Shown here one piece after another: positions 39,663 to 59,342 of a DNA stretch of 64,000 bases; the stretch's first letter is position 1, and each line of letters begins with the position of its first letter. The notes under the pieces are model-generated. The model did no database searches and was not told the DNA's origin. It saw only the letters and a program-made list of their open reading frames with translations. Origin of the DNA: Gammaproteobacteria bacterium (GTDB lineage: Bacteria > Pseudomonadota > Gammaproteobacteria > HyVt-429); contig JAADGI010000019.1 of the NCBI GenBank assembly GCA_013152415.1, positions 130,000-193,999 on the forward strand, given 5' to 3'. The position numbers were made by a program, and so were the translations under genes.

Positions 39663-42600
39663 CTAAACGGCAAGCAACTTGACAACCATATTAAACAGCG
39701 TTTTGATTTCCATGGGCTTGGTCAGATAGCCCCGAATACCCAGCGCCTTGGATTTTACCTCATCCACTTGCTCACTGTAGCCAGTACACAGGATTACAGG
39801 CAGTTCAGGCCTCAGCGCCATCACTTTCTGCGCCAATTCCACACCCGTCAGCCCCGGCATAGTTTGGTCGGTAATGATGAGATCAAAAGCTGCCGGATCC
39901 TGACTGAACAAATCCAATGCCGCACGGCTCTCTGTCAGTACCGTGATCTTCCCTCCACGATTCTCCAACAAACTACCCATGAACCTGCCGATTGATTCTT
40001 CATCATCGACAATGAGTATGCGAGCACCCTTTAAATTTTTGGGTATAAGCTTAACATCTGACTGGGCACCTGGCTCATGGATTGACACACCCTCTGCTAT
40101 GGGCAATAACAATCGAAAAGTGGTTCCAAGCCCAAGCTCCGTATCCACAAGAATATGGCCCTCATGTTGATGAATAATACCATACACCATAGACAGCCCC
40201 ATACCGGTCCCTTTGTCCACATCTTTAGTTGTGAAAAACGGTTCAAAAATCCGTTCCAACTCGTCAACACTTATCCCGGTACCAGTATCCTGCACAGATA
40301 ATTCGACGTAATTCCCTGATGCAATTTCAATATGACAGGCATCACAAGTACAACGTAACACCGCATTACTTGGCACTGATTGTAAAATTTCTTGATTACT
40401 GTTTTTTCTAATACGAACACGACGTGCACGGATATCAAGACGCCCCTTACCCCCAACTGCATCCCGGGCATTAATGCATACATTCATCAGAACTTGTTGT
40501 AACTGTACTGGTTCCATCATCACCGCCGGAACATCCGTATCACAATGGCCGGATAATTCGATACTTGAAGGTAATGTGGAGTGCAACATTTTAACTACTT
40601 CTTTTATCATGGGGGATATCGGCACCCGGCTCACTGTGCTGCTACCGGTTCGACTAAAGGCCAGCATCTGGCTCACCAAATCACGCGCCCGTTCACCCGC
40701 CTGTGAAACCTCATTGAGGTACTCACGAAGTTCTGGCTGATTATTATTTGCAAAACGCTGTAAGGCCAGGCTGGTAAACCCCAGGATTGAGGCAAGAATA
40801 TTGTTAAAATCGTGAGCGATACCGCCGGTAAGCTGGCCAATCGCCTCCATCTTTTGCGCCTGCCGGAGTTGTATATTTAATTGGTGGCGCTCCTTGTGTG
40901 AACGTAAAGTCACAATGCCATAGGCCAGATCGTCAGCTAACTCCTGAAGAAGACGTACTTCTTCCTCATCATCGAATGCACTCTCTTCATGTGCGTAAAT
41001 ATTCAGCACCCCAAATGTCTGTTCTTTGTTTTTGAGAGGCAGCGCAACAGATGATCTATACCCATGTTTCAAGGCCGATTGTCGCCATGGTATATAACGG
41101 GGGTCTTCTAGAATATTACGAATAATACTAAGCTTGCCGCTTCGAATTGCGATCCCTGTAGGACCTTGCCCTCTTTCCGTATCGGCCCAAGTTAGATTTA
41201 CTGTCTCAAGATAGCCCTCATCATAGCCTGCCTGGGCCATGGGTTTAACAGTCTTCGCTTCATCATGCTCGGCAAACCCCACCCAAGCCAGTCGGTACCC
41301 CGAAATCTCCACGATAATACGGCACACCTTGTTTAATAATTCCGCTTCATCTTCGGCCCGCACCAGGACTTCATTGCATGCACTTAACGCCTTCAACGAT
41401 CTATTGAGCCTTCTCAAGGTTTGCTCAGTCTGATATTGCTCTGTTATATCCTGCACCGTACCGACGGAACGGACCGCATTACCCGTATCATCATAAAATG
41501 TCTCACAACGTGCCATAACATGTTTGATTTTACCGTCCGGCATACGGATACGATAGGCAATGTTATAGGGCAATTTATTCTTGAGTGATGCCGTATAAGC
41601 AGTTTCCACCTGCTCCCGATCATCCGGATGCATGAGATCCAGGTAGGTCCCAAAAGTTACGTCGATCTTCCAGGGATCGACCTCAAAGATACGGTAAATC
41701 TCCTCCGACCACTCCAGTTTATTGGTCACCAGATCCAGCTCCCAGTTGCCGATACGGGCCATGCGTTGTGCCTCGGCCAATCCCGCTTCACTATCGCGAA
41801 GTGCCTGTTCCACCCACAACCTTTCCAACTCCGCCGCCACTCGGACAGCGAAGATTTTGAGTATGGCCCCCACCATTCCGGCATTTTCCATGGGTTTGTC
41901 ATCCATCACCACAATCAGGCCGATGGGCTTACCGGTAGTATCCACTAAAGGTGCCCCAACATAGCTTTGTGCACCCATCTCTTTGAGCATGGGATCATCG
42001 GGAAACAGATACTGGATATCACGGGGATAAGCCTGAACACCGCAAGACGAAGACACCCCTACGACGTGCTCGCAGGGAGAACGCACTAATTCATAACTCG
42101 GACCATCAACAACCTCACCCTGAATACACAGGGCAACGGTGTCGACCGTGCCCGGTCTTTGTTTGTCCAGCAGACCGATGAAAGTGTATTTGGCATTGAA
42201 TGTCTTCGCCAAGTGTATAGCCAGCGATTGGAAAAAGGCCTCACCGATCTGGGACGAAACCCCAACAGCAATATTGTGCACGGTCTCCTCGGTATGCTTG
42301 CGCTCGGTTATATCCGTAATTGTTCCAACATAACCGACTATCACACCGTTTTCGTTCAGATCAGCCCTTGCCTGACCTAAAACCCACTTTGTAACACCTT
42401 CGGGTGTCCTGAAACGATATTCGCTCTGAAATGGCAAACTATTGTCGAAGGCCAATAGCCATTCTTCAAAAACGCGCTTGCGATCATCAGAGTGTATACC
42501 ATGGATCCAACCCTCACCCTGTGCATCTTCAAAAGTCATTCCTGAAATCATGCACCACCGTTCATTCACGTAGAGACAATTCCCAGCTGCGTCCGTACGG

Positions 42601-43568
42601 AATATCCCTACAGGTGAGACTTCTGCTAACACTTGATATCGCCTTTCGCTCTTCCGTAGCGCTTCATTGGCTTGTTTTGCAGTTTCTTTTGATCTGTCCA
42701 GTGCGCTGCCCATATGCCGGGATATTAATGTTGCAATAAATCCTGTGATAATAATAACTACTACCGTCAAGGCTGATGATATAAGCGCCGGATTTATTTT
42801 TGTCATTTGCATTAAAAAGAGAACCGCCACCCCACCAAATACAACCGATAACACCGAGAGAGGCAGGATAAAACGAAGTAAGTAACTGCGCGTAGAAGTC
42901 TCTGTCAAGAACCGCAGAGGGAAAGCATCCCCTTCAGCGGTCAGGATAGAAATGGACAGGAATGCAAAACCCAAAGCTGTCGTCAGTGCCATCGGAATGG
43001 TGGCGCCAAGCCCATAAAGCAGTGGCATCCCATAGAAATAAGCCAAACAGAAGGAAAAACTAATTAGCAGCACGAGAAAGCCCAACCCACTTACAAAATA
43101 TTCCACAAGCGTGTTGCCTTCCGGGAACTTTCGCTTAAAGATGAGAAAGAACACAGCAGTACCTGAAAGAAAAAAGGCGCCCCCCGTGGCAGGAGACATT
43201 CGTGCAATAGGAACCCCATTGAGCTTTCCTACAGCAGGGACAAGTATATCTTCAAAATTAAGGTCTATTCCGCTGAAATACCCAGCGACTTCCAGCACCC
43301 CGAACAGAGATACCAGAAAAGTGATTGCCATAAGGCTGGTTACTTTGGCCCCAGGGTACCGCCTGATATTTAAAACCAACAGAACAAAGCCAAGAATAAT
43401 AAAATTTACCGCTGTACTCGGCGCCATAGGGATATAGCTCTCCCTAACGCTACCGAGCAGACCCATGCCAGGCAGATATCCCACCAGCCCCAGAATTGCG
43501 AACATGATTGCGCCTGATGCGCCAACCGTGGACCATGGCTTCAGTACATTTTTCATGCAGCACTCCAA
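39663..43568 (-). CDS. hybrid sensor histidine kinase (multi-TM N-domain, PAS-GAF-PAS, HisKA-HATPase, C-terminal REC)
   Basis: 1301 aa. About 8 N-terminal TM helices. PAS/PAC repeats. HisKA IAHDFNNILASILGF. HATPase GTGMGLSMVYGII. Receiver ARILIVDDEESIG...DLIITDQTMPG. Confidence 0.85.
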   Translation of the reverse strand: MECCMKNVLKPWSTVGASGAIMFAILGLVGYLPGMGLLGSVRESYIPMAPSTAVNFIILGFVLLVLNIRRYPGAKVTSLMAITFLVSLFGVLEVAGYFSGIDLNFEDILVPAVGKLNGVPIARMSPATGGAFFLSGTAVFFLIFKRKFPEGNTLVEYFVSGLGFLVLLISFSFCLAYFYGMPLLYGLGATIPMALTTALGFAFLSISILTAEGDAFPLRFLTETSTRSYLLRFILPLSVLSVVFGGVAVLFLMQMTKINPALISSALTVVVIIITGFIATLISRHMGSALDRSKETAKQANEALRKSERRYQVLAEVSPVGIFRTDAAGNCLYVNERWCMISGMTFEDAQGEGWIHGIHSDDRKRVFEEWLLAFDNSLPFQSEYRFRTPEGVTKWVLGQARADLNENGVIVGYVGTITDITERKHTEETVHNIAVGVSSQIGEAFFQSLAIHLAKTFNAKYTFIGLLDKQRPGTVDTVALCIQGEVVDGPSYELVRSPCEHVVGVSSSCGVQAYPRDIQYLFPDDPMLKEMGAQSYVGAPLVDTTGKPIGLIVVMDDKPMENAGMVGAILKIFAVRVAAELERLWVEQALRDSEAGLAEAQRMARIGNWELDLVTNKLEWSEEIYRIFEVDPWKIDVTFGTYLDLMHPDDREQVETAYTASLKNKLPYNIAYRIRMPDGKIKHVMARCETFYDDTGNAVRSVGTVQDITEQYQTEQTLRRLNRSLKALSACNEVLVRAEDEAELLNKVCRIIVEISGYRLAWVGFAEHDEAKTVKPMAQAGYDEGYLETVNLTWADTERGQGPTGIAIRSGKLSIIRNILEDPRYIPWRQSALKHGYRSSVALPLKNKEQTFGVLNIYAHEESAFDDEEEVRLLQELADDLAYGIVTLRSHKERHQLNIQLRQAQKMEAIGQLTGGIAHDFNNILASILGFTSLALQRFANNNQPELREYLNEVSQAGERARDLVSQMLAFSRTGSSTVSRVPISPMIKEVVKMLHSTLPSSIELSGHCDTDVPAVMMEPVQLQQVLMNVCINARDAVGGKGRLDIRARRVRIRKNSNQEILQSVPSNAVLRCTCDACHIEIASGNYVELSVQDTGTGISVDELERIFEPFFTTKDVDKGTGMGLSMVYGIIHQHEGHILVDTELGLGTTFRLLLPIAEGVSIHEPGAQSDVKLIPKNLKGARILIVDDEESIGRFMGSLLENRGGKITVLTESRAALDLFSQDPAAFDLIITDQTMPGLTGVELAQKVMALRPELPVILCTGYSEQVDEVKSKALGIRGYLTKPMEIKTLFNMVVKLLAV

Positions 43569-43819
43569 TTCTGCACCGGTTTCTACGGTAGAAGCACCGG
43601 ATACCGGTCAGGTCCTTCCTGACTATAAGATGCGCGGTGAGGTTCCGAACTCCGTGGCTCTGGCTGTATAGATGTTCGGATCACTACGCCTCAATCACCG
43701 ATCCACTGCTTAACACTAAATAGCATATTTTTATGTACGCCGTTACCTGGTCCTGCTCATCTGGGCAATCATTCTACAACCGCAGACTCAGATCTTCCCC
43801 ACCCACATCGGCCTTGTGA

Positions 43820-46800
43820 TCAGACACTCTTGAGCAGATTTTCAACCAACCCCAGAAATTTATCGGTTTCTATCGGCTTGTCAACATAGCCTCTAATCCC
43901 CAGTGATTTGGCCTTGGCCTCATCAATATACTCGCTATAACCCGTACACAAGATCACCGGTAATTGTGGCCGAATCTCTAACAATGACTGCGCCAGTTCC
44001 ACGCCCATCATACCCGGCATGGTCTGATCTGTTACCACTAAATCAAATGCCTCTGGATTCTGCTTGAATCTTGATAACGCCAATCGGCTATCGGTTACTA
44101 CGGTAGTTTGACAACCATGACTTTTCAACAACTCGCCAATAAAGCCTCCAACCGAAACCTCATCATCCACAATTAAAATGCTCGCATCTAAAGTTGGATC
44201 TGATGATGTCTTCGTATCACTGTCCTGCCTATTCACGGTATCAACCTTTATATCTACTGCTGGGAATAATAGATTGAAGCTAGTGCCTTTCCCTGACCCA
44301 GTCTCCACGATAATATGACCGTCATGATCATGCATAATGCCATGCACCATAGACAAACCCATTCCTGTCCCCTTACCCACCTCCTTGGTGGTGTAAAATG
44401 GGTCAAAGAGTCGATCAAGTTGTTCCACATGAATACCGGACCCGGTATCACGAACAAAAAGCTTAATGTAATCGCCTCTAATCATTTTATGACAGGAATG
44501 ACATTGCTTTACGATATTACTCTCTCGCTGCAATCCGATAGTAAGACGGCCCTTTCCTTCCATGGCATCTCGTGCATTGATACATAAGTTCATGACCAGT
44601 TGATGTAGTTGCACCGGGTTCGTCATGATAGCCAAATTGCCACTCTCCATCTGTAAATCAATCTCGATACTCGATGGCAAAGTAGTACCCAGCATCTTCA
44701 ATGACCCCTTTATCAAGGCCGGCAACACATGCAGATCAAACTCCCCCTCACCCCCACGACTAAATGCCAACATTTGTGACACCAGATCACGTGCCCGCTT
44801 ACCCGCTCTATAGACTTCGCCAAGACAATCTTCAATTTGATTATTATCGTATTGCCCCAGCCCTTCACGCGCCAGTTCTGTGTAACCCATGATTGATGTC
44901 AGCATATTATTAAAGTCATGGGCAATGCCGCCCGTCAGTTGGCCGATGGACTCCATTTTCTGGGCCTGCTGTAACTGTCGTTGTAATTGCCTACGTTCAC
45001 TGATATCGCGCTTAATAGCAATAAAGTGGCCGATTCTTCCGTCCGTATCCAATACGGGTGTGATACTTTCTTCTTCCAGATACAGACTGCCGTCCTTGCG
45101 CTTGTTCCACAGATCTTCATGCCACGTCTTACCAGAGAGTATGGTATCCCATAGCCGTTTGTAGAATGCCTTATCATGTTTTCCGGACTTAACTATCCGT
45201 GGGTTTTTTCCCAGCACCTCACCCAACGTGTAACCGGTTAATCTGGTGTAGGCCGGATTAACCCATTGGATACTCCCGTGCCGATCGGTAATAACAATCC
45301 CGTCAGCCGTCGCCATAAGGGCTGAGGCCTGCAAGCGTGTTTTGGCTTGCGCAAATTCGAGTTCAATTACCTCGGAAAGAATGTTTGCCACCGCCAAAAG
45401 AAAATTACTATCATCTTGGGTAAAAACCCGGTGCTCACTTGTGTGGACACCGAGAATACCAAAGGGTCGGCTCCCCCCATGAATGATGATGCTCATACCA
45501 CTGACCACACCGTGGTCATGCAGCAACTGGGGTCCCGTAAAACGTGTCTCTTGATGCAGGTCTGCAACAATGACCGGATTTTTACAAGCAAGAGTGTAAC
45601 CCGCTTGCGAGTCTATTCCGGCATCCACGATGGCCCGACCCACAAGCCCCTCTTTCCATCCCACACCAGCACGCAATACCAGCGTCTTGGCATCATCAAG
45701 TAACTCCAGAATCTTGCAGTACTCCACCTCCAGGACCTGAGCAATGTACTCAACCGTTGTATCCATCAATGCGGCAAGCTCCATACCTGACAAGGCACGT
45801 TGTCCCAATTCCGCCACTGCCGCTTGTTGGTGTACACGCCTTATCAATGCCTCATCTACTTCCAGACGCCGCACTCTGGCTTGTGCCTGCCACCAGGTGC
45901 CTGCGACCATCAACCCTAACAACGGCATGGCGATCAACGACAGTTTCACAGCAAGGGTGTTCGCAGCAACATCGAGAGTCTTGCCTGGAACGTGGGCGAC
46001 AGCTTTCCAGTGGTATTCCTTATCCTTGGCCCCGTTAGGACCCAACTCGTCTGCAAGCTCCATTCTGGCAAGTGTTTTTCGTCCCTCCCGCAGGGGGTAG
46101 ACTGTAGTAAATGTAAATAAGCCATCACTGGTGTAGAAATGACCCTCATCCACTTTTTCAATTCGCTCCCAAACCCCTGGAAACTGTTTCTTGAATGTGT
46201 GTTTCGAACTCAACTGGGAGCCCCATTTCAATTGCGGACGTAGGCCAAACATCCAGAATCCACTTGCATCCAAAAGCATCACACGATCTGTGGTGTCAGC
46301 TGTCGCCTTCTTGAAGCCCTGTATTAAACTGGAGCCCAGGTAATTAAGGACAACAATGCCCTTTATTTTTTCCTGGCCATAAAGCACCGGGGTTGCCAGC
46401 CGAATAACGGGCTTATATGGCCTTTCCACTTTGCCGTACTCAACATTCAAATCCAAAGGAGAAATAAATAATTCTCCCTTTTTAAGGCCCATGGTGTCCG
46501 TAAAATAACGGCGCTTACTTTTATCTTGTAGTTGATCTTGTGGAACGATATAGGACTGTTTGAGGCCGAGATTTATCCTGATAACCTCCTTTCCGGTTTC
46601 ACCCAGGAAACGGAGCTGATCGTAGTGCCGTTTATTTTGCGAAAAAATCAGAAACTCTTGTGCCAGCTGCCCAAGTCCCTGAAAGGCCTGTTGTGTATTC
46701 ACTGTAATAAATTCACTGTGTTGCGAAAGAACCCTCAAATCGGCAATGGCGGCTTCCATATCCTTTTCCATAACCTGTTTTCCAAGGCTAATATGCAAGG

Positions 46801-46936
46801 TCTCTTCCGCCTCAAGAATGGCTCTCTGCTTCTTGACCCCAGAGGAGTAAAGATAACCAATAACCAGGCCAAAGATGACCACTATTGGTACAAACATGCG
46901 CAGGAATTGCTTAACAATACTTTTGGGTATTTGCAT
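43820..46936 (-). CDS. hybrid sensor histidine kinase (periplasmic Cache-like domain, PAS-GAF-PAS, HisKA-HATPase, C-terminal REC)
   Basis: The start is at the internal Met MQIPKSIVKQ. One TM helix, then a periplasmic sensor, then a second TM. HisKA IAHDFNNMLTSIMGY. Receiver ILIVDDEVSVG...DLVVTDQTMPG. The C-terminal half is paralogous to the preceding kinase. Confidence 0.85.
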   Translation of the reverse strand: MQIPKSIVKQFLRMFVPIVVIFGLVIGYLYSSGVKKQRAILEAEETLHISLGKQVMEKDMEAAIADLRVLSQHSEFITVNTQQAFQGLGQLAQEFLIFSQNKRHYDQLRFLGETGKEVIRINLGLKQSYIVPQDQLQDKSKRRYFTDTMGLKKGELFISPLDLNVEYGKVERPYKPVIRLATPVLYGQEKIKGIVVLNYLGSSLIQGFKKATADTTDRVMLLDASGFWMFGLRPQLKWGSQLSSKHTFKKQFPGVWERIEKVDEGHFYTSDGLFTFTTVYPLREGRKTLARMELADELGPNGAKDKEYHWKAVAHVPGKTLDVAANTLAVKLSLIAMPLLGLMVAGTWWQAQARVRRLEVDEALIRRVHQQAAVAELGQRALSGMELAALMDTTVEYIAQVLEVEYCKILELLDDAKTLVLRAGVGWKEGLVGRAIVDAGIDSQAGYTLACKNPVIVADLHQETRFTGPQLLHDHGVVSGMSIIIHGGSRPFGILGVHTSEHRVFTQDDSNFLLAVANILSEVIELEFAQAKTRLQASALMATADGIVITDRHGSIQWVNPAYTRLTGYTLGEVLGKNPRIVKSGKHDKAFYKRLWDTILSGKTWHEDLWNKRKDGSLYLEEESITPVLDTDGRIGHFIAIKRDISERRQLQRQLQQAQKMESIGQLTGGIAHDFNNMLTSIMGYTELAREGLGQYDNNQIEDCLGEVYRAGKRARDLVSQMLAFSRGGEGEFDLHVLPALIKGSLKMLGTTLPSSIEIDLQMESGNLAIMTNPVQLHQLVMNLCINARDAMEGKGRLTIGLQRESNIVKQCHSCHKMIRGDYIKLFVRDTGSGIHVEQLDRLFDPFYTTKEVGKGTGMGLSMVHGIMHDHDGHIIVETGSGKGTSFNLLFPAVDIKVDTVNRQDSDTKTSSDPTLDASILIVDDEVSVGGFIGELLKSHGCQTTVVTDSRLALSRFKQNPEAFDLVVTDQTMPGMMGVELAQSLLEIRPQLPVILCTGYSEYIDEAKAKSLGIRGYVDKPIETDKFLGLVENLLKSV

Positions 46937-47257
46937 GTAGAGACGGCCACCCTCGACTCGTGATTGTTTGCTCGTCACCAGGTCCACTGCCCCAAGTGCC
47001 CAGCCTTATATCTCAGTCTTTGCTTACAGGCCATCCTGATGGCTGACCATCAATTACAAACGGCAGCAGCAAATCTACGTGAATAAGCTCAAGCCCTTTA
47101 TGTTGAGCCTTCGCCACAAAGAAATAGAATTCACAGGGAAAATATGTCTTATCATCATCTGCTCTACAAACAAACAGGGAAGAGCCCTTCTGTCCATTCA
47201 CCAACACGACTTTTGAAATTCACCCTAGACACCAAATGATAAATTTCTTATTCAGCT

Positions 47258-48364: not shown

Positions 48365-48949
48365 TTATCGATTTAAGCCAAGATGTTTGATCAACACTTG
48401 TTCATCAATCGGTTTGGGTAAACATACTTCTGCACCAGCAGCCAGAATGTTTTCAATGTTTTCCGGTGAGGGATAACCGGTCATGGCAATGACGCGTATT
48501 GCTTTTGTATTGGGTTCTGTTTTTAATAAATGGCAAACTTGAAAACCATTTAAGCCCGGCATCATTAAATCCAGCAAAACGACGTGAGGTTCAAACTCAC
48601 GGACCTTGAAACCTGCTGCAAACCCATCACCGGCAGTTTCTGTAATAGCTTCATTCTGAAACCCATTCAGGACTTCTACCAAATAACGCATTAACTGCTC
48701 ATCATCATCTACGATGAGAATCCGTAAAGCACCATTATTGCCCGGATTCAAAGTCAAGCCTCTATCCCGCGCAAAGCGTTCCACCTCACCAGGGAGAAAG
48801 CGGCGATGCCCACCTGGGGTGGTTAATGCATTTAAATCGCCCTTTTCTGCCCATTGCCGAACCGCAGTTGGGGAAACCATCAACAATTCAGCGACCTGAT
48901 TGGGTGTTAAATATGATTTCGAAACTACTTTCTTTCTTAGCTTAGCCAC
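48365..48949 (-). CDS. response regulator with N-terminal excisionase/MerR-type HTH (HTH_17-like) and C-terminal REC
   Basis: LTPNQVAELLMVSPTAVRQWAEKGDLNALTTPGGHRRF matches the excisionase-family DNA-binding pattern. RILIVDDDEQLM...VVLLDLMMPG...AMTGY matches a receiver domain. Confidence 0.75.
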   Translation of the reverse strand: MAKLRKKVVSKSYLTPNQVAELLMVSPTAVRQWAEKGDLNALTTPGGHRRFLPGEVERFARDRGLTLNPGNNGALRILIVDDDEQLMRYLVEVLNGFQNEAITETAGDGFAAGFKVREFEPHVVLLDLMMPGLNGFQVCHLLKTEPNTKAIRVIAMTGYPSPENIENILAAGAEVCLPKPIDEQVLIKHLGLNR

Positions 48950-49180
48950 ACTTGTACGAACCTCCTCTTCAACAAATAAACCCGACAGTCACCATTATAC
49001 TTCGGCTCTTGTGGTTTTCTAATTTTTTTCGATTTTTACGCTTTTACTATGTGTATGTTCTCGGCCCTGGATAAAAAAGCTTTAGCCTTTGCAGGCTCAT
49101 AGCACAGAAATAAATACATAACTATTTGTTTTTATTGAATATCCTGAGTTACCACTACTGCTGTTTTTCGAGACCTCTAT

Positions 49181-49310: not shown

Positions 49311-49506
49311 ACCTTCTACTGGATACAGACGAGCGCCGTTCAGGATACGAGCACGAGGGGAAACTGAGCAGAAAAGGAAAAAGATTATGTCTCAACAACT
49401 CCGGCGAGAATATTTTGAAATTGGAATCTGGGGTCTATGTGCCTAAACCCGTAGAACCCAACGATATGTTTCAGTTTCTTGTACTGAATAAAGCTTATTC
49501 AGCAAG

Positions 49507-52047: not shown

Positions 52048-52074
52048 TAAATGTATTCCAGTCAGGAGAATTTT

Positions 52075-54096
52075 ATGAAACTCATCGACAATCTAAAGAT
52101 GCGAAATAAGTTTGCATTAATGCTGGTGTTCCCCGTCTTAGGTCTGATTTATTTTGCCATCGCAGAGATATTTATTGAATACAACACCTTGCAGGAAATG
52201 GAGAGAGTTGAGCAACTTTCTACCTATGGGGTCGAAGCCAGTAATCTGGTGCATGAGATACAAAAAGAGCGTGGCATGACCGCAGGTTACCTGGCATCCA
52301 AAGCTAAGAAATTCTCCACTGAGTTGCCCAAGCAACGTAGTATGGTTGACAAACGCCTGGTCACATTAAAGGCCCACCTGAGAGACCATAATACCAAAGA
52401 TTTTGGTGGTGAAAAACTAACCCAGAGAGTCAATGCAATTCTCGGTCTCCTAAGTAATTTACAAGTTAAACGTGAAGAAATTACTGGCCTAAATATCAAG
52501 CAAAAAGATGCAATTGCTTACTTTACCAGCATTAACACTAAGTTACTTGATTCCGTTAGCCTGGTTGCAAGTTTAAGCACTACGGCAGAGATCAACAAGC
52601 TAGCCTCAGCCTATGTTAATTTTTTACAGGCCAAGGAGCGCGCAGGAATTGAACGTGCTGTAATTACAGGTGCATTCGGTGCCGACAAATTTAACGAGGG
52701 TGGTTATGAAAAATTCCTCTCACTTGTTGTGATGCAAGATACTTACATCAATGTATTCAGGTCATTTGCAAATGAAGCCCAGTTAGAGTTTATGGAAGAA
52801 ACCGTAAAAGGTTATGACATTAATGAAGTTGCTCGCTTACGCAGGATAGCCGGTGATGTAGATTCTAGAGAAAAGGGCTTCAATATTGATGCTGCCCACT
52901 GGTTTAAGGTCAGTACTGGGCGTATCAACTTATTAAAGAAAGTCGAAGACTATCTGGCTAATAATCTTTCAGAACGTACAGAAAAATTATTCTTATCAGC
53001 GAACAAAAATTTTGTTAGTGCAATATCCATATCCTCAATCGTTACACTGGTTACATTTCTATTCACATTTCTCGTTGTTCGTGGTGTCACCAGACCATTA
53101 AGTGACGCATTGCTACGGATGAGAGACATTGCAGAAGGGGAAGGCGATCTTACCAAGCGCATCGAAATTAAATCAACGGATGAGATTGGCCAATTATGTG
53201 GTGCAGCCAATACATTCATTGAAAAAATACATGGTGTAATCAGCAATGTCATAGTTAGCTCATCGGACTTGAGTGATGCTGCCAAACAAGTCAGTACTGC
53301 GTCACAGGATCTATCGAGCGGCTCTTCAGAACAAGCGGCCAGTGTTGAGGAAACCTCTTCCTCACTAGAACAAATAAGTGCAACGGTAAATCAGAATGCT
53401 GGCAACGCAAAACAAACTGAGGCCATGGCAACAACAGCTTCTAATCAAGCTGAAAAAGGTGGTGAACAGGTAGCGGAAACCGTTATTGCTATGAAGGATA
53501 TTGCAGAGAAAATTGCCATCATTGAAGATATTGCCTACCAAACCAATTTACTGGCACTCAATGCAGCTATCGAGGCTGCACGCGCAGGGGAGCATGGCAA
53601 GGGATTTGCAGTTGTAGCAACGGAAGTACGCAAGCTGGCAGGCCGCAGTGAATCAGCCGCTGGTGATATCAGCTCACTGGCAAAAAATAGCGTGAGCATT
53701 GCTGAGGGTGCAGGAAAATTACTGGAAGAAATCGTCCCCAGTATCAAGAAAACGGCAGACCTGGTTCAGGAGATCAGCGCATCGAGTGGAGAGCAAGCCA
53801 GTGGCATTGGTGAAATAAACAGTGCCATGGGGCAACTGGATACGGTCACTCAGAATAATGCGGCTTTGGCAGAGGAGCTATCAGCAACCGCAGAGGAAAT
53901 GAGCGCACAAACACAGGCATTGAGTGACATGATGAGCTTCTTCACAGTCGAAGATGGCACTGTTAAATCCAAGCCTATGCCCATTCGGGCCTCGGTAACG
54001 GAACTAAAACCCAAATTAGAAATTAAGAGAGTGATTGAGGGGCATGTTGCTACTGCGAGCAATATGGCTGTTCCCGAAGGATTTCAACGCTATTAG
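52075..54096 (+). CDS. methyl-accepting chemotaxis protein with periplasmic NIT-like sensor domain
   Basis: RBS AGGAGA lies 6 nt before the ATG at 52075. TM1, then about 270 aa periplasmic with an [11 protein letters not shown] motif (NIT-like), then TM2, HAMP, and an MCP signalling domain ([35 protein letters not shown]). Confidence 0.8.
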
Positions 54097-54112: not shown

Positions 54113-54646
54113 ATGAATAATATTGCGCTTGAAAACATTGAACAGCCAATAGATACAAGCCAATTTCTCACCTTTATGCTGTCGGGTGAGGAATTGGCTG
54201 TATCCATCATGCAAGTCAAGGAGGTCATTGAGTACGATAGTTTGACCTCTGTACCCATGATGCCCAACTTTATCTCTGGCGCCCTTAATCTCAGAGGCAG
54301 TATTGTACCAGTTGTTAATCTCGCTATTAAATTTGGTATGCCAGTTTCTGAAATAACACACCGTAGCTGTGTTGTCATTATGGAGGTGATGCTAGATGGC
54401 GAGGAATCTGTAATCGGCATATTGGTGGATAAGGTATTGCAGGTCAACTACATCACAGACGAAGACATTCATGCGGCACCTACGCTGGGCTCTCAGATAC
54501 GGACTGACTTTATTCGTGGTATGGGCAAGCTGAAAGAACGATTTGTGACTATTCTGGCCATCAATAGAGTGTTATCAGAAGAAGAGATTGCAATAGCAGG
54601 CAATATTCAGAAAGAAGATGAAACCCTCATGGAAGCCCGCGCTTAG
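54113..54646 (+). CDS. cheW: chemotaxis coupling protein CheW
   Basis: FLTFMLSGEELAVSIMQVKEVIEY...ALNLRGSIVPVVNL matches the CheW fold pattern. The start is taken at the internal Met of track ORF 54035. Confidence 0.85.
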   Translation: MNNIALENIEQPIDTSQFLTFMLSGEELAVSIMQVKEVIEYDSLTSVPMMPNFISGALNLRGSIVPVVNLAIKFGMPVSEITHRSCVVIMEVMLDGEESVIGILVDKVLQVNYITDEDIHAAPTLGSQIRTDFIRGMGKLKERFVTILAINRVLSEEEIAIAGNIQKEDETLMEARA

Positions 54647-54658
54647 AGATTAAAGAAA

Positions 54659-55534
54659 ATGCAGACTCAAACGTTAAAGCATACAGATGAAATACAAGGC
54701 TATGATGGCATGTCAAATAGGGCACTAAAGGGCTTCCAGACTCTGATATTTAAGGTATCTGGTATCACCATGTCTGATGCTAAAAAATCTTTGATAGCAG
54801 GGCGTCTGACAAAAAGGTTACGTGCTCTTAACCTAAATAGTTATGATGAATACCTGCATTATCTGACAAAAGGAGAAGGTACACATAGCGGTGAAGTTGA
54901 AAACTTTACTAACTTATTGACAACCAATGAAACCTACTTTTACCGAGAACCTCAGCATTTTGCTTTTCTAAAGAAAGAAATTCTCTACAAACACAATTCA
55001 GACCAAGCCATACGTATCTGGAGTGCAGCCAGTTCCTCAGGAGAAGAGGCCTATACTCTAGCTATGGTCCTGGCTGAAGAGTTCGGTGCCAATGCCAACT
55101 GGATGGTAATGGGTACAGATATATCAACCAGCATGATCAAAGCTGCACAACAAGCGATATACAGCGAGCAACGTGTTCGAATGGTCCCTGATGACATTAG
55201 GTATAAATACCTATTGAAAGGGACGGGAGAATACAATGGCTATGTGTCTGTTGTGCCAGAGATAAAAAAACATGTCCACTTCGAGCACTATAACCTGGTC
55301 GAATCTACGCTTAAAACAGAACTATTCGACGTGATATTTTGCCGAAATGTGTTGATTTATTTCAACCAACAAACCAAGAAAAAAGTCATGGAAAGATTGT
55401 GCAGACAATTAAAACAAGGATCATACCTAATGACTGGCCATTCAGAATCCTTGCACGGCATGTTACCAGAACTAAAGTCTGTCAGTCCATCTGTCTATCT
55501 GAAAGCGAATCAAACAAATGGACTAATATCATGA
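54659..55534 (+). CDS. cheR: chemotaxis protein methyltransferase CheR
   Basis: The N-terminal helical domain is followed by a SAM-MTase domain (TNETYFYREPQHF, RIWSAASSSGEEAYTLAM, FCRNVLIYF). Confidence 0.85.
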   Translation: MQTQTLKHTDEIQGYDGMSNRALKGFQTLIFKVSGITMSDAKKSLIAGRLTKRLRALNLNSYDEYLHYLTKGEGTHSGEVENFTNLLTTNETYFYREPQHFAFLKKEILYKHNSDQAIRIWSAASSSGEEAYTLAMVLAEEFGANANWMVMGTDISTSMIKAAQQAIYSEQRVRMVPDDIRYKYLLKGTGEYNGYVSVVPEIKKHVHFEHYNLVESTLKTELFDVIFCRNVLIYFNQQTKKKVMERLCRQLKQGSYLMTGHSESLHGMLPELKSVSPSVYLKANQTNGLIS

Positions 55535-56622
55535 CAAAGACCATCAAGGTCATGGTTGTGGATGATTCTGCTCTGGTCAGAAAGGTCATGACTGAAGTGC
55601 TGAGCAGCGATCCAGACATCACGGTCATTGACCAGGCATCTGATCCCATATTTGCCATGCAAAAAATGGCCAAGGAAATGCCTGATGTCATGACACTGGA
55701 TATTGAGATGCCTCGCATGGACGGCATCACATTCTTACGCAAATTGATGTCTGAGAACCCCTTACCCGTTGTTATTTGCTCAAGTCTGACACATGAAAAT
55801 ACCGATACAACAGTTAGCGCGCTATGTGCAGGTGCGGTGGACATCATAACTAAACCCGCCATTGGCGTAAAAAGCTTTATAGAAGAGTCAAATATCCAAA
55901 TTATAGATTCAATCAAGGCAGCGGCTCAGGCCTGCGTCAAGAAGCGCAAGCCAGGTCACATCAACACAGAATCAAGACATTCTGCCGACGTGATGTTAAA
56001 AAAAATGAGTTCCAATAGTCATGCCATAAGTGAAACTACGGACAAAATCATCGCCATTGGTGCATCTACCGGTGGCACCGAGGCCTTGCGGCAAGTACTT
56101 AAGGCCATGCCCGCCATCACGCCCGGCATACTTGTCGTTCAACACATGCCAGAAAAATTCACAACGGCTTTTGCTGGGCACCTGAATGAAATCAGTGCAA
56201 TGGAGGTAAGAGAAGCAGTACATGGTGATCGATTGCATAACGGTCTGGTATTGCTCGCACCGGGCGGTAAACATCTGCTGCTCAAACGGAATGGAGCACA
56301 ATATCATGTCGATGTTGTAGATGGCCCTCTGGTAAATAGACACAGGCCATCGGTTGACGTTCTGTTCAGATCTGCCGCGCGCTTTGCAGGCACTAATACT
56401 AGTGCCTGCTTGATGACGGGCATGGGTGATGATGGCGCCACTGGATTAAAAGAAATAAGGGACGCAGGTGGCAGAACGTTTGCTCAGGATGAGGAAACTT
56501 CTGTCGTATTTGGCATGCCAAAAGAGGCCTGGAAACGGGGTGCGGCAGAAAAGTTACTCGCATTACAGGATATTGCACCAATGTTACTGAAAACAAGCAA
56601 ACAGGCCTCCAGGCTTAACTGA
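55531..56622 (+). CDS. cheB: chemotaxis methylesterase/deamidase CheB (REC + CheB_methylest)
   Basis: The start is at the internal Met MTKTIKVMVVDDSALV, overlapping the cheR stop (ATGA). REC is followed by the esterase domain with IIAIGASTGGTEAL and HMP motifs. Confidence 0.9.
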   Translation: MTKTIKVMVVDDSALVRKVMTEVLSSDPDITVIDQASDPIFAMQKMAKEMPDVMTLDIEMPRMDGITFLRKLMSENPLPVVICSSLTHENTDTTVSALCAGAVDIITKPAIGVKSFIEESNIQIIDSIKAAAQACVKKRKPGHINTESRHSADVMLKKMSSNSHAISETTDKIIAIGASTGGTEALRQVLKAMPAITPGILVVQHMPEKFTTAFAGHLNEISAMEVREAVHGDRLHNGLVLLAPGGKHLLLKRNGAQYHVDVVDGPLVNRHRPSVDVLFRSAARFAGTNTSACLMTGMGDDGATGLKEIRDAGGRTFAQDEETSVVFGMPKEAWKRGAAEKLLALQDIAPMLLKTSKQASRLN

Positions 56623-56642: not shown

Positions 56643-57008
56643 ATGGGGAAAAAGATATTATTTGTTGATGACTCAACGTCTATGCGAGAGATCGTTGGCA
56701 TGGCAATGAGTGATGCAGGTTATGAGGTGACGACAGCGGAAGATGGGAATGATGGTGTCGGAAAAATGGAAAATGATAAGTTTGATGCCATTATTTCGGA
56801 CCTTAATATGCCAAATATGAATGGCATTGAAATGATTAAAGCTGCCAAAAATAATGCGAACAACAAATTTACACCGGTCATCATGCTAACGACAGAATCC
56901 AGCGATGACATGAAACAACAAGGCAAAGATGCAGGGGCCAAAGTCTGGATAGTAAAACCCTTTAAACCCGACCAGTTAATTGATGTTTTAAAAAAACTAT
57001 TAGGGTAA
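56643..57008 (+). CDS. cheY: chemotaxis response regulator CheY
   Basis: 121 aa single REC domain: KILFVDDSTSMREIV...DAIISDLNMPNMNGIE...KVWIVKPF. Confidence 0.85.
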   Translation: MGKKILFVDDSTSMREIVGMAMSDAGYEVTTAEDGNDGVGKMENDKFDAIISDLNMPNMNGIEMIKAAKNNANNKFTPVIMLTTESSDDMKQQGKDAGAKVWIVKPFKPDQLIDVLKKLLG

Positions 57009-57022: not shown

Positions 57023-57625
57023 ATGAATGACTCTGTTAACCGGTATTGGGATAATCGATTTAAACGGCAAACTGTTAAGATTTTGCCGGGTGATTATTAT
57101 GTTTGTGATGGCCAAGAAATGATTGTAACGGTACTCGGATCCTGTATTTCAGCCTGCATACAGGATCAAGTGACAAAGATTGGTGGGATGAATCATTTTA
57201 TGTTGCCCACGAAGAAAGGTCACGATTATGAACAGTCTGTCAATATTACAGATGATACGGATACGGCCCGCTATGGTAATGTGGCGATGGAACGCTTAAT
57301 TAACGATATAGTAAAACTAGGTGGAAACCGTCATAGCATGAGAGCAAAGATATTTGGAGGTGGGCGCATTACCAATACACGTATAGACATTGGTGCAGGG
57401 AATATCAGTTTTGTACATGAATACCTGCATACAGAAGGGATTCAGATTTTATCTGAAGATGTGGGCAATATCTATCCCAGAAAAGTGTATTACATACCAG
57501 AGATCAATGAAGTCTATGTGAAAATAATTCAACACATGAATAATACTACTATTATAGACCGCGACATTAGCTACATACATTCACTTGATAAATATGACAC
57601 AGAAGGTCAAGTGTCTTTTTTATGA
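57023..57625 (+). CDS. cheD: chemoreceptor glutamine deamidase CheD
   Basis: [12 protein letters not shown]...GGMNHFMLP matches CheD signature motifs. Length 200 aa. Confidence 0.75.
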
Positions 57626-57689: not shown

Positions 57690-58955
57690 ATGGAAAAAGA
57701 TAAATCAATACACAAAAAATCACAAATAGTATTTGATGAAAATATGCGATTCGTTTTTGTGCCATGGTCTCTAGGATTATTCTTTGCTTTGTCCAGCATA
57801 TTATCAATATTGAACGATATACATGTCAACCTGGTTATTGCAATGATACTAGCAAGTATCATTAGTTGGGTAACGGGTAATTATGTTTTTCTGACAAAGA
57901 CAAGAACTTACAAAGAGAAAGAGAAATGGGGTAATGCTATCACCTGCAAACTTTCAGATGAATACGAAAAGCTAATGGACCAAGCTGACAATGATCAAAA
58001 TACCCAGTTTGAGCAAATGGAAGATGAGCTTGCACGCGTTAAATCCATACAAGGTGATGCTATTACAGGCGTGATAAAAAGCTTCCAGGGTCTGGACGAC
58101 CAATCTCGCAGCCAACTTGATATGGTATCAAACCTGATCAATCTTGTTACTAAAAGCAGCAGTGGAGATGGTGAAACAAAAAGCGTTCGTGAAGAAGCAA
58201 CGGATATGATAACAATGTTCACTCAAAGTATACAGAAAATGAGTGACGGTAGCATGCATTTGGTCAATTCTATGAATACCATGGACATGAATATTAAGGC
58301 AATCAAAAAACTCTTAGGTGAAATCGATGGTATCAGTTCACAGACAAATTTACTGGCACTCAATGCATCAATAGAGGCTGCTCGTGCTGGAGAAGCGGGA
58401 CGAGGATTTGCCGTTGTTGCCGATGAAGTTAGAGACCTCTCTCAGCGTAGCCACCAATTCAGCAGCGAAATCCGGATGAATTATAGTGAAATAGAAAAAA
58501 CAATGAATGGTGCCAGACAGGTTGTCGGCAAGATTGCAGCCAACGACCTAACATTAACCCTGAGCTCCAAGAATCGCATGGATGAAATCATGACAGAAAT
58601 AGAGCAGACCAATAAGAATATCGGCGATGAACTTCAAAGAGTGTCCAGCATCTCGTCTGAAATCACAAAAAATGTAGATCTTGCTCTCAAATCAATGCAA
58701 TTTGAGGACATGACCAGCCAATTGTTGGTCCACTTATCCAAGCGTGTTGGCGCCCTGCGTGGTTTTACAGATGCATCCTCGGAACTCAGACATGATTTTA
58801 ATGTTGTGAGCCGCAATGACCTTGCCTTGCAGCTTGACGAACATATTGAACATTTGCAAATAGCAATGTCAACTGCCCATAAACTATCAGGAGAGACCGA
58901 ACATGCTCCAGTTCACCAGAAAAACATGGATGATGGTGAAGTAGTATTTTTCTAA
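57690..58955 (+). CDS. methyl-accepting chemotaxis protein (short, two N-terminal TM helices, no periplasmic domain)
   Basis: The start is at the internal Met [10 protein letters not shown]. The signalling domain reads [37 protein letters not shown]. Confidence 0.8.
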
Positions 58956-58967
58956 AGGAGAACGATC

Positions 58968-59342
58968 ATGAGCAGAACAATACTAATTGTTGACGATGAG
59001 CCTTCAGTGCGTAAAATGCTAACCAAGATTCTCAAAGAAGAAGCAGATGTATTTCTAGACGCAAAAAATGGAGTACAGGCAAAACAACTCTGTTACGAAC
59101 AAGATGTTGACTTAATGATTACCGATATAGTCATGCCAGAAAAACATGGGATAGACCTGATTATTGAGATAAAAAAAGAAAAACCAAATTTACCTATTAT
59201 TGCAATATCAGGCGGCGGGGGCATATCTGGCCGGTTTGATTACTTGGAAATTGCCGGGACCCTTGGTGTTGAAAATATATTGCACAAACCGTTTAAGGCA
59301 AGCGAATTAAGAAGTTTTGTCAGATCCGCTTTGAGTGATTAG
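58968..59342 (+). CDS. single-domain response regulator (CheY-like)
   Basis: 124 aa: ILIVDDEPSVRKML...DLMITDIVMPEKHGIDL...LHKPF. Confidence 0.8.
   Translation: MSRTILIVDDEPSVRKMLTKILKEEADVFLDAKNGVQAKQLCYEQDVDLMITDIVMPEKHGIDLIIEIKKEKPNLPIIAISGGGGISGRFDYLEIAGTLGVENILHKPFKASELRSFVRSALSD

Follow-up and report, generated by a model that had tools for sequence, protein, structure and literature searches.

A 20-kb stretch of signaling genes between rnr/tRNA-Leu and purA of an uncultured sulfur-cycle bacterium is probably a two-layer island, composed of a resident two-component module and an imported 34H/F8 che cassette with a BldC-like regulator in common. The window is the entire 64-kb stretch of DNA that was analyzed. 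The GC contents of the individual genes confirm the AT-richness reported in an earlier note and divide it into two tiers. Backbone genes have a GC content of 0.52–0.59, the kinase operon 0.47–0.48, the HTH-REC gene 0.44, and the che genes 0.34–0.46. The che cassette (~49.09–59.66 kb, ~10.5 kb) averages 0.41 compared to ~0.52 for the backbone, and this value matches the 0.38–0.40 of donor-like che loci. Other low-GC patches are located at 5–8 kb and 22–27 kb of the window.

The minus-strand operon encodes, in order, an HTH_17/MerR-like-REC regulator, a REC-HD-GYP protein, and the hybrid histidine kinases HK_B and HK_A, and their positions and order agree with the earlier note. The regulator (48365–48949) has a BldC-like winged HTH whose residues 12–58 align without gaps to the BldC structures 6AMK and 6AMA. 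The structure closest to its receiver is 3CNB, which was deposited as a 'merR family' response regulator. REC-HD-GYP (47258–48337) retains the HD motif, HHERWDGGGYPDG (HHExxDGxGYP), and the receiver D/T/K residues, and is a predicted c-di-GMP phosphodiesterase. HK_B (43820–46987) is 1055 residues long from a GTG start or 1038 residues from the first ATG. It consists of a periplasmic HK_sensor_dom_bact domain between two TM helices (~300 residues; PF21623, weakly dCache-like) followed by GAF, PAS, HisKA, HATPase with a CHSCH insert, and REC domains. HK_A (39663–43568; 1301 residues, with a probable ATG start 12 nt inside the ORF) has ~8 hydrophobic TM segments within residues 14–279 followed by PAS, PAS_3, GAF, HisKA (H-box GGIAHDFNN), HATPase with a CDACH insert, and REC domains. 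Neither hybrid kinase has an Hpt domain. The GGIAHDFNN H-box and the CxxCH insert place HK_A and HK_B in one special kinase subfamily with different sensors, and 37 of 43 kinase cores carry a CxxC(H) insert.

The C-terminal halves of the two kinases had been described as near-identical products of a duplication followed by input diversification. Their sensor modules do differ and their cores are homologous, but the halves are 52% identical over 395 residues, which is no closer than their 41–55% identity to kinases from other genera. HK_B and HK_A each have their own ortholog in the relative L085 (71% and 69% identical, respectively); thus, any duplication is old.

The plus-strand che operon is complete and divergent from the regulator genes, as the earlier note had it. 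The first gene encodes a small STAS-domain protein (49534–49812, alternative GTG start at 49507) in a CheS-like position directly upstream of CheA. Its STAS_2 match is below the Pfam cut-off, and a STAS gene is found at this position in every related cluster. CheA (49852–52047) contains Hpt, dimerization, HATPase, and CheW-like domains without a REC domain, and its P1 is the sole Hpt domain in the island. MCP1 (52051–54096) combines a periplasmic NIT (nitrate/nitrite-sensing) domain, a HAMP domain, and a 34H signaling domain with a tail of ~45 residues ending in GFQRY. CheW (54113–54646), CheR (54659–55534), and CheB (55531–56622; REC plus methylesterase) follow. CheY (56643–57008) is canonical with an aromatic residue at the Y106 position, and is 81% identical to the L001 protein and 52–59% identical to CheY of the F8-type plasmid and Methyloradius clusters. 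The operon continues with CheD (57023–57625), MCP2 (57690–58955), and REC2 (58968–59342), a single-domain receiver. MCP2 has an N-terminal TM hairpin without a sensor domain, and its signaling domain is in register with a 44H receptor. MCP2 is always paired with REC2. CheZ is absent from the che system.

The receptor heptad class, the gene content, and the nearest annotated clusters indicate that the che system best fits the little-studied F8 class. MCP1 is assigned as a 34H receptor because it has two symmetric 7-residue deletions relative to Tsr (36H), and the literature links the F8 class to 34H receptors. In the nearest annotated clusters, 34H receptors, STAS, and CheD occur with the gene order CheA-MCP-CheW-CheR-CheD-CheB, and related che clusters are also found on plasmids. 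CheR can be aligned gaplessly to the pentapeptide-binding CheR of Salmonella, and both it and the receptor tail are consistent with the pentapeptide type. The ACF class fits less well given the 34H receptor, CheD, and the F8-type gene order.

The resident and imported layers are distinguished by comparison with L085, a close Acidiferrobacteraceae relative whose backbone proteins are 88–95% identical to those of the window. The L085 site reads hflK-hflC-hisZ-purA-YgaP followed by HTH-REC, REC-HD-GYP, MCP2, REC2, HK_B, and HK_A, and the genes from STAS through CheD are absent from the L085 purA-YgaP site. Identities to L085 are 92% for purA (60065–61360, minus strand), 88% for HisZ, 95% for HflC, 87% for REC-HD-GYP, and 78% for HTH-REC. 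Because the same purA site in L085 carries the kinase/HD-GYP/HTH-REC module, the synteny identifies this module (~39.4–49.09 kb) as resident and conserved in the lineage. Its outer edge, common to L085, is placed at a conserved noncoding stretch 3' of HK_A (39445–39553) that is 85% identical to its L085 counterpart. On the rnr side, the backbone is marked by the tRNA-Leu(CAG) gene (38777–38863, plus strand). Both cassette junctions were mapped against L085, and toward purA the cassette is delimited by a backbone gene for a YgaP-like small membrane protein (59670–59870, minus strand, 79% identical to L085). MCP2 and REC2 of the window are 48% and 57% identical to the L085 pair, compared to 59% and 60% for a distant che cluster of a symbiont. 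These values indicate that the window pair are xenologs of the L085 pair, and the resident-type pair of L085 is missing from the window. The comparison points to the che cassette as the later horizontal arrival.

The earlier note had proposed that the whole 20 kb is one recent, self-contained island with tandem-duplicated kinases and diversified inputs. The GC content of the entire stretch below that of its flanks, the adjoining tRNA gene, and the homology of the kinase cores are consistent with this origin. However, L085 carries the kinase/HD-GYP/HTH-REC half at this site but lacks the che half, the two halves differ in GC content (0.47 versus 0.41), and the kinases are no closer to each other than to those of other genera. 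Neither an integrase nor an att repeat was found at the island, and a search for an att-like repeat of the tRNA-Leu(CAG) 3' end did not detect one. A single acquisition is therefore highly improbable, and the proposed horizontal transfer holds for the che cassette but not for the kinase half. There is similarly little chance that the low GC reflects a local functional or mutational bias, such as AT-rich regulatory genes or targets of a xenogeneic silencer, with the che genes simply deleted in the relative. The slight AT-richness of the shared module in both genomes and the additional low-GC patches in the window fit a local bias, but had L085 merely lost the che genes, its MCP2 and REC2 would still be orthologous to those of the window rather than less similar than the pair of the distant symbiont. 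The donor-like GC content of the cassette, the plasmid-borne related clusters, and the relic of a second regulator gene within the cassette also argue against it.

This relic lies at 49406–49510 on the plus strand and consists of the last ~34 codons and the stop codon of a che-linked HTH_17-REC gene. It was identified by tblastn against residues 158–190 of the L086 protein (E = 4.6e-4) and by a Smith–Waterman score of 53 compared to 28.8 ± 4.0 for shuffled sequences, none of which reached 53 in 500 trials. The relic stop overlaps the start of the STAS ORF. In L086, L084, L001, and the P0008 locus, the STAS and CheA genes come after HTH-REC in the same orientation, and the che operon starts with the regulator gene in each of the five closest che loci. 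A co-directional Methylobacter locus reads CheA-MCP-MCP-CheW-orf-ODP-CheR-CheD-CheB-HTH_REC-HK-REC_HD-GYP.

The "repeat-rich promoter" noted earlier between the divergent operons contains phased 9-bp units. The resident HTH-REC promoter region (48993–49089, minus strand) is 74% identical to that of L085 and has two proximal 9-bp units with CG at 49030 and 49039. A candidate promoter, TAGAAA-16-TATAAT, is located at 49021–48994, although the promoter scan overall was not above chance. Three phased units, CGATAATAT, CGGTAATAA, and CGCTAAAAA, form an array at 49189–49215. A second array at 49269–49313 has four CGs (49269, 49287, 49296, and 49305) in 9-bp register over five unit positions, and together the arrays make an imperfect inverted repeat. 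The array orientation is ambiguous because the unit core (ATCGAT) is palindromic. The intergenic CG dinucleotides are phased at 9, 18, and 27 bp (P about 0.0004), and these are the only two AT-rich arrays of at least three units in the 64 kb, compared to 0.03 expected from shuffles. Upstream of 79 HTH-REC genes, CG spacing peaks at 9, 18, and 27 bp with 213, 169, and 140 pairs versus ~95, whereas coding and other-intergenic controls are flat. The 9-bp AT-rich/CG units are ~21-fold enriched upstream of HTH_17-REC genes (83 loci), and 35 of 57 arrays fall within 2.9% of the sequence. BldC recognizes direct repeats of 9 bp, AATTxxxx(C), and binds them head-to-tail. The rows of repeats thus appear to be bound by HTH_17-REC, an unstudied regulator type. 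Because the units are found both at the regulator's own promoter and before the che operon, one regulator probably controls the resident module and the che operon. The operon-head position, the Methylobacter recurrence, the operator arrays, and the relic support a functional link of HTH-REC to the che genes.

The cassette probably arrived in the canonical form of its closest relatives (operator arrays, its own HTH-REC, STAS, CheA through CheD, MCP2, and REC2), inserted beside and divergent to the gene of the resident regulator, and afterward shed all but the 34-codon relic of its own copy. We infer DNA binding, phosphorylation partners, and cellular output for the two-layer island as follows. 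Phosphorylated HTH_17-REC would polymerize head-to-tail on the tandem units like BldC. The hybrid kinases conserved alongside it would mainly determine its phosphorylation; of the 51 loci that extend 6 kb or more downstream of the regulator, 24 contain the same kinase core and 15 contain HD-GYP. CheA is a possible additional phosphate source since its P1 is the only Hpt domain available. However, che genes lie beside HTH_17-REC in only two of these untruncated loci, and CheA may not phosphorylate a regulator whose family is mostly found without them. REC-HD-GYP would turn the same phospho-signal into c-di-GMP hydrolysis, lowering c-di-GMP. In the che core, the NIT receptor would sense nitrate/nitrite and CheR, CheB, and CheD would carry out adaptation. 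Signal termination without CheZ would probably depend on the CheS-like STAS protein and on REC2 as a phosphate sink, a scheme likened to that of Sinorhizobium.

A conceivable but rather unlikely alternative is an ordinary accessory flagellar system in which the F8 cassette acts through CheY alone on the flagellar motor for nitrate/nitrite taxis. CheA would phosphorylate neither HTH-REC nor REC-HD-GYP, and these proteins and the kinases would form a separate two-component system, at most regulating che transcription. F8 is nominally a flagellar class, and rhizobial F8 clusters are counted among chemotaxis systems. The canonical CheY, the full adaptation set, the usual association of the HTH-REC family with hybrid kinases rather than che genes, and a lone FliK-like domain protein encoded in the window are consistent with this interpretation. 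The regulator as first gene of the closest che operons and its embedding after CheB in Methylobacter argue against it, as do the MCP2-REC2 pairs that also occur inside kinase/HD-GYP modules without CheA. Furthermore, the main chemotaxis system of P. syringae is a different one, and its F8 system influences biofilm and virulence. The Hpt-less hybrid kinases, the nominally flagellar class, and the equidistance of the window HTH-REC from the resident-type L085 copy and the che-linked L086 copy (77% identical to each) were counted against the two-layer interpretation.

The 3' end of the cassette carries a branched hairpin of ~100 nt (59376–59471, plus strand), with a folding energy of −72 kcal/mol for 59343–59500 (z = −7.2). 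It has no second copy in the window and no match to Rfam families, and may represent either a terminator or a scar of the insertion.

The open reading frame map and Pfam scans bore out the gene inventory that the earlier note had drawn up for the island. In order of transcription, the minus strand encodes an HTH_17/MerR-like regulator fused to a receiver (HTH-REC; 48365–48949), a REC-HD-GYP protein (47258–48337), and two hybrid histidine kinases. In HK_B (43820–46987), a PF21623/dCache-like periplasmic domain sits between two transmembrane helices, and GAF, PAS, HisKA, HATPase, and REC domains come after them. HK_A (39663–43568) has about eight hydrophobic segments, then PAS, PAS_3, GAF, HisKA, HATPase, and REC domains. 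The plus strand encodes the che genes STAS, CheA, MCP1 (a NIT-HAMP receptor), CheW, CheR, CheB, CheY, CheD, MCP2, and REC2. MCP2 is a sensor-less receptor with a transmembrane hairpin, and REC2 is a second single-domain receiver. The acidic pocket, Thr/Ser, and Lys are kept in all receivers of the island. The REC-HD-GYP protein has intact LHDIGK and HHERWDGGGYPDG motifs (the HD dyad and HHExxDGxGYP; HD_5, E = 2e-32), and having both it is predicted to be a catalytically competent phosphodiesterase. CheA consists of Hpt, dimerization, HATPase, and CheW-like domains only, with no fused REC, and its P1 domain is the sole Hpt domain within the island. Pfam annotation found no GGDEF gene in the island and no CheZ, CheV, CheC, or CheX in the che cluster; the cluster also has no PP2C or anti-sigma kinase gene.

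The island is flanked by conserved gammaproteobacterial backbone, with rlmB-rnr-tRNA-Leu on one side and a YgaP-like gene, purA, hisZ, DUF2065, and hflC on the other. The GC content is 0.52–0.59 in the backbone genes (GC3 0.55–0.66), 0.47–0.48 in the kinase operon, 0.44 in HTH-REC, and 0.34–0.46 in the che genes. No integrase was found among the open reading frames or Pfam matches, and no att-type repeat copying the 3′ end of the tRNA was found between 38.7 and 60.1 kb, so the region lacks both marks of a classical tRNA-integrated genomic island. An Rfam scan returned three tRNAs and nothing else.

The window CheA and HTH-REC match proteins from the metagenome-assembled genome of an uncultured gammaproteobacterium at 100% identity. 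A related Acidiferrobacteraceae metagenome-assembled genome (locus L085) has the same chromosomal site, miaA-hfq-hflX-hflK-hflC-hisZ-purA-YgaP. In L085, YgaP is followed by HTH-REC, REC-HD-GYP, MCP2, REC2, HK_B, and HK_A, and the genes from STAS to CheD are absent from the site. Identity between the window and L085 is 88–95% for the backbone proteins (purA, hisZ, hflC, and DUF2065), 87% for REC-HD-GYP, 78% for HTH-REC, 71% for HK_B, and 69% for HK_A, and it is 48% for MCP2 and 57% for REC2. The window MCP2 and REC2 are closer to their counterparts in a che cluster from a Galathealinum endosymbiont (59 and 60%) than to those of L085, and the gap between the window HD-GYP and HK_B genes has no remnants of the L085-type MCP2 and REC2. 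Mapping of the junctions at the DNA level aligned the L085 HTH-REC promoter with window positions 48993–49089 and the L085 sequence beyond HK_A with 39445–39553; on the other side, purA-YgaP was matched in both. Because the L085 junctions map on both sides, the window-specific insert is placed at about 49.09–59.66 kb. Its GC content is 0.41 compared to 0.52 for the backbone, and donor-like che loci have a GC content of 0.38–0.40 in genomes of 0.40–0.45. From the L085 synteny, identities, junctions, and GC content, we conclude that the kinase/HD-GYP/HTH-REC module is resident and that the che operon came in later by horizontal transfer, together with an MCP2-REC2 pair of its own. Horizontal acquisition, which the earlier note had proposed for the island as a whole, thus holds for the che part, where L085 lacks STAS to CheD, the GC content is low, MCP2 and REC2 are xenologous, and a relic gene is left. 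It does not hold for the kinase, HD-GYP, and HTH-REC half, which is present in L085.

The relic is the end of a second regulator gene. In all examined close CheA relatives (67–74% identity; loci L086/L087, L084, P0008, and L001), HTH_17-REC is the first gene of the che operon, and the order is HTH_17-REC, STAS, CheA through CheR, CheB, CheY, CheD, MCP2, and REC2. A PAS hybrid kinase comes next in the relatives whose contig continues. In the window, the 100 nucleotides directly before STAS translate on the che strand as ENILKLESGVYVPKPVEPNDMFQFLVLNKAYSAR*, which matches the C terminus of HTH_17-REC regulators (tblastn E = 4.6e-4). The Smith-Waterman score of the relic is 53 compared to 28.8 ± 4.0 for shuffled sequences, and none of 500 shuffles reached 53. 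The relic before STAS indicates that the cassette arrived with a regulator gene of its own; this gene has since decayed, and the resident copy has stayed. The retention of only one copy argues that the resident and cassette regulators were functionally equivalent. The window HTH-REC is equidistant (77%) from the resident-type and the imported, che-linked copies, and by this measure could be of either type. The window and L085 together form a natural experiment in which a chemosensory cassette appears to have joined an existing two-component module and then shed a redundant regulator.

Two features at the cassette edges were recorded. A near-identical motif of 16–17 nucleotides lies near both ends (GCCCTGGATAAAAAAG at 49064–49079 and GCCCCTGGATAAAAAGG at 59511–59527), and it could be chance or an insertion trace. 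A branched hairpin of about 100 nucleotides directly follows REC2 at the 3′ edge (59343–59500; −72 kcal/mol, z = −7.2). No second copy occurs in the window or in the 87 loci searched, and no Rfam family matches it. A terminator, an RNA element, and a scar of the insertion are possible explanations.

HTH-REC belongs to a large family with 1,869 database matches, relatives in at least 554 species-level genomes, and a near-invariant helix-turn-helix. Residues 12–58 align without gaps to the BldC-DNA structures 6AMK and 6AMA (47 residues including the GGHRR wing; E = 6e-8). The protein has a MerR-like winged helix-turn-helix without the MerR coiled-coil/effector domain, and the remainder is a receiver. 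Each protomer of Streptomyces BldC reads a 9-bp direct repeat, AATTxxxx(C), that combines an AT-rich patch with one C·G pair, and the protein polymerizes head to tail on variable numbers of repeats. BldC is a stand-alone protein of 68 residues, whereas HTH_17-REC carries a C-terminal receiver. Since the DNA-binding domain is fused to a receiver, binding by HTH_17-REC would be phospho-controlled.

The promoters of HTH_17-REC genes contain tandem 9-bp units of an AT-rich/CG type that parallel the BldC repeats. In the 250-bp regions that precede 79 HTH_17-REC genes, CG dinucleotides were spaced at 9, 18, and 27 bp in 213, 169, and 140 pairs, compared to a baseline of about 95. There was no such peak in coding sequence and almost none in the other intergenic regions of the same loci. 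The unit consensus is about nAAT-CG-ATn, with a core of about AATCGATT compared to the BldC repeat AATTxxxxC; two to seven units occur in tandem, clustered at a distance of 50–110 bp from the start codon. The region upstream of HTH_17-REC genes shows an enrichment of phased 9-bp units of about 21-fold. In 1.15 Mb of loci, 35 of the 57 AT-rich arrays with at least three units fall in the 2.9% of the sequence directly upstream of the regulator gene. Arrays of three to four units also lie far from the regulator gene in L049 (−7674), L060 (+8177), L007 (+2739), and L027 (−1233), and these may mark further promoters of the HTH_17-REC regulon. A reading of array orientation was dropped because the unit core is palindromic.

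The CG phasing is also present in the window intergenic region (P about 0.0004). The only two arrays of at least three units in the 64 kb are located there, at 49189–49215 and 49287–49313, the second reaching a CG at 49269; shuffled sequences are expected to have 0.03. Both belong to imported DNA and precede the relic and the che operon, and the resident promoter has a two-unit array beside a TAGAAA-16-TATAAT match. A scan of the island for sigma-70 promoters and terminators was not above shuffled expectation and was kept for two positional remarks only. A generic repeat finder returned short, uninterpretable pairs from the intergenic region, and the 9-bp register was seen only by the CG-spacing analysis. 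The intergenic phasing and the arrays therefore show that the repeat-rich promoter described in the earlier note is real. Most simply, the arrays are a candidate operator of the BldC-like regulator at both divergent promoters. In the literature searched, neither BldC-like receiver fusions nor their repeat arrays are described. HTH_17-REC is a large, tightly conserved, and unstudied family of BldC-like response regulators with a probable operator now defined, and we regard the family and its operator as the most useful by-product of this work. If the operator role is true, it would extend the BldC/Xis-type filament binding mode to phospho-controlled regulators in Proteobacteria.

The partners of the regulator were counted in 51 loci where the sequence downstream of its gene is 6 kb or longer. 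A hybrid kinase with the same type of core is present in 24 of the 51, REC-HD-GYP in 15, often as the very next gene, a receptor in 7, and che genes in 2. These counts make the hybrid kinase the most constant partner of the regulator, and the che link is recurrent but clade-limited. The kinases beside HTH_17-REC form a recognizable subfamily with the H-box GGIAHDFNN and a CxxC(H) insert. Located about 18 residues ahead of the ATP-binding domain's G1 box, the insert occurs in kinase cores of different genera (37 of 43). HK_A has CDACH (40339–40353), HK_B has CHSCH (44489–44503), and the kinases of L085, L059, L001, and many other loci have the same insert. The cytoplasmic Cys pair might sense redox state or bind a metal. 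The C-terminal halves of HK_A and HK_B had been described as near-identical; they are 52% identical over 395 residues. This divergence, and a separate L085 ortholog for each kinase, rules out a recent tandem duplication.

Two che-linked loci extend the neighborhood of the regulator. Methylobacter has one co-directional cluster of CheA, two 34H-like MCPs, CheW, an open reading frame, an ODP-family protein, CheR, CheD, and CheB, then HTH_17-REC, a MASE3 hybrid kinase, and REC-HD-GYP. In the P0008 locus (JGI 3300072015), the HTH-REC/che cluster directly follows pelD-pelE-pelF-pelG of a pel operon, and further hybrid kinases lie beyond the che cluster, one with EAL and hemerythrin domains. This neighborhood hints at a biofilm/c-di-GMP context. 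A GGDEF-EAL gene is also found inside the Methyloradius che cluster. The ODP-family protein of Methylobacter (PF19583; L059, 6380–7120) is encoded between CheW and CheR of this 34H-type cluster. Treponema chemotaxis employs ODP as a diiron O2/iron sensor, and if this account of ODP is right, oxygen sensing may be an input to the Methylobacter cluster.

The class of the che system was assigned from its receptor, gene content, and nearest relatives. Compared to the 36H receptor Tsr of Escherichia coli, MCP1 has exactly one 7-residue deletion in each arm, making it a 34H receptor, and 119 residues separate the HAMP end from the hairpin tip. Three literature sources assign 34H receptors to the F8 class. 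The best annotated CheA relatives (43–47% identity) are on Aeromonas, Pseudomonas, and Xanthomonas plasmids, and the remaining plasmid-borne CheAs reach at most about 39%. The Aeromonas, Pseudomonas, and Methyloradius clusters have the order short-MCP, CheY, STAS, CheA, MCP, CheW, CheR, CheD, and CheB, and their receptors, also 34H, align to MCP1 without gaps (61–64%). Because of the 34H receptor, the gene content, and the nearest annotated clusters, the cassette is filed as, and looks like, a rearranged F8-type system. Alternative cellular function (ACF) as the primary label is rejected because of the 34H receptor, the CheA without a fused REC, and the lack of a GGDEF gene; the CheA-REC fusion and in-cluster REC-GGDEF output of Wsp-type ACF systems are not found here.

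F8 systems of Pseudomonas syringae pv. tomato (cluster II), Vibrionales, and Methylotuvimicrobium alcaliphilum share with the cassette a 34H transmembrane receptor in the cluster, the set of CheA, CheW, CheY, CheB, and CheR plus CheD without CheZ or CheV, and a patchy, accessory distribution. A preprint describes the Vibrionales F8 system as CheA/W/Y/B/R plus CheD, patchily distributed and unexplored. In the P. syringae cluster, the only receptor is of the 34H class and bears a pentapeptide at its C terminus, with a CheR to match. The cluster influences swimming, biofilm, and virulence; the main chemotaxis system is a different one, and no output has been defined for this cluster. The gene-order match to this cluster depends solely on the assignments of the MCP as PSPTO_0912 and of CheR as PSPTO_0910. 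A possible further likeness to F8 is the pentapeptide-like aromatic receptor tail with a CheR that aligns to the pentapeptide type. MCP1 ends in GFQRY on a linker of about 45 amino acids, with aromatics at pentapeptide positions 2 and 5. The alignment of CheR to the pentapeptide-binding Salmonella CheR runs without gaps across the beta-subdomain loop; at the positions of R187 and R197, however, it has K and S. Unlike F8, the cassette has the order CheB-CheY-CheD with CheY not before STAS, an additional sensor-less MCP2 with REC2, and a NIT sensor on the receptor. Its clade also differs in having a BldC-like HTH-REC at the head of the operon and hybrid kinases or HD-GYP after it; the F8 literature searched makes no mention of such an arrangement. 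F8 is widespread and essentially uncharacterized, and HTH_17-REC with or without HD-GYP is a concrete candidate output for it, with nitrate/nitrite via NIT as a candidate input.

Plasmids between 98 and 509 kb in size carry F8-type che clusters with STAS; they are those of Pseudomonas sp. HR96 (L088) and Aeromonas sp. BC14 p1 (L089) and, judged by its CheA match, a Xanthomonas sacchari plasmid (NZ_CP010410.1). The Aeromonas and Pseudomonas plasmids are typed as non-mobilizable, and the Pseudomonas cluster adjoins a VapC/Phd toxin-antitoxin pair.

The STAS gene recalls other chemosensory systems. The window protein is a weak STAS_2 match (26.7 bits against a cut-off of 29.2), and its position next to cheA is kept in all related clusters. 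In Sinorhizobium and Agrobacterium, CheS binds CheA and speeds the dephosphorylation of CheY1. The window protein is the counterpart of CheS in position, and STAS, two CheY-like receivers, and no CheZ would fit a phosphate-sink design. The Che1 (F7) system of these bacteria likewise has a small STAS protein gene adjoining CheA, CheD, two single-domain CheY-type receivers, no CheZ, and a similar order (CheS-(CheY1)-CheA-CheW-CheR-CheB-CheY2-CheD), whereas its receptors are 36H and it controls flagella; the cassette has a 34H receptor and the weak STAS match. Ancestral (stage 1/2) F7 systems of Vibrio, Pseudomonas, and Shewanella are accessory too and have CheD and an anti-sigma-factor-antagonist-like STAS protein beside cheY/cheA. 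They are suspected of a non-flagellar, stress-related role, but their receptors are 36H and Aer2-like and their partner is a serine phosphatase, unlike the 34H cassette without PP2C or anti-sigma kinase.

We propose that HK_A and HK_B respond to cues from the periplasm, membrane, and cytoplasm and thereby control how far HTH-REC and REC-HD-GYP are phosphorylated. Phosphorylated HTH-REC would bind the 9-bp arrays and control its own operon and the che operon, and HD-GYP would lower c-di-GMP. The che array would sense nitrate/nitrite, adapt by methylation, and signal to CheY and REC2. HTH-REC and HD-GYP, or by way of CheA-P1 the receivers of the kinases, are possibly further targets of the array. 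The model as a whole seems to us moderately probable. The specific claim that CheA feeds the regulator or HD-GYP is less likely than not. The same idea of a methylation-adapting array acting on a non-motor response regulator is embodied by Wsp (ACF, with WspR as output) and by other systems with c-di-GMP or transcriptional output. Unlike Wsp, the cassette has a CheA without REC fusion, an F8-like class, and a degrading HD-GYP instead of a GGDEF cyclase, and its CheA is linked to HD-GYP by gene neighborhood alone. According to a review, the chemosensory systems known to modulate c-di-GMP are only of the ACF or Tfp classes. Another parallel is PA2571-PA2572-PA2573 of Pseudomonas aeruginosa, an adjacent kinase, REC-YN-GYP regulator, and orphan MCP, for which a REC-dependent interaction of MCP and regulator is reported. 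In the L085-type module MCP2 directly follows REC-HD-GYP, a likeness of gene adjacency; PA2572 is a degenerate YN-GYP, whereas the HD-GYP motifs of the island are intact.

The main rival sees in the cassette a common accessory F8 system of the flagellar kind, tied to the module through transcription only; we consider it about as likely as the CheA claim. A broader proposal, which we put forward tentatively, is that one clade of F8 arrays has as its dedicated output a transcription factor of the BldC-like, receiver-fused type, often with REC-HD-GYP. The nitrate/nitrite array and the CxxCH kinases would converge on this factor, which would form phospho-dependent head-to-tail filaments on the 9-bp arrays. 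If true, an 'F' class system would for the first time have a transcriptional and c-di-GMP output, and the BldC mode of DNA binding would have a phospho-switchable version. That che clusters commonly lie beside two-component genes and are transferred horizontally is already known.

Other features were observed elsewhere in the window. A 287-amino acid protein (14752–15615, plus strand) has a FliK-type hook-length-control domain (Flg_hook, E = 2.4e-9) and is the only flagellar hint in the window, with no further flagellar genes nearby. A second low-GC patch (0.42–0.47) at 21746–25427 encodes a cyclopropane-fatty-acid synthase, a metallophosphoesterase, and a Crp-like regulator; it abuts tRNA-Arg (25945–26021) and tRNA-Ser (26219–26311) and may be another acquired segment. 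A 1426-amino acid protein (7759–12039, minus strand) has a C-terminal Peptidase_C25 (gingipain-like) domain and is adjoined by a radical-SAM/SPASM enzyme (6388–7515, plus strand) in a slightly AT-rich stretch.
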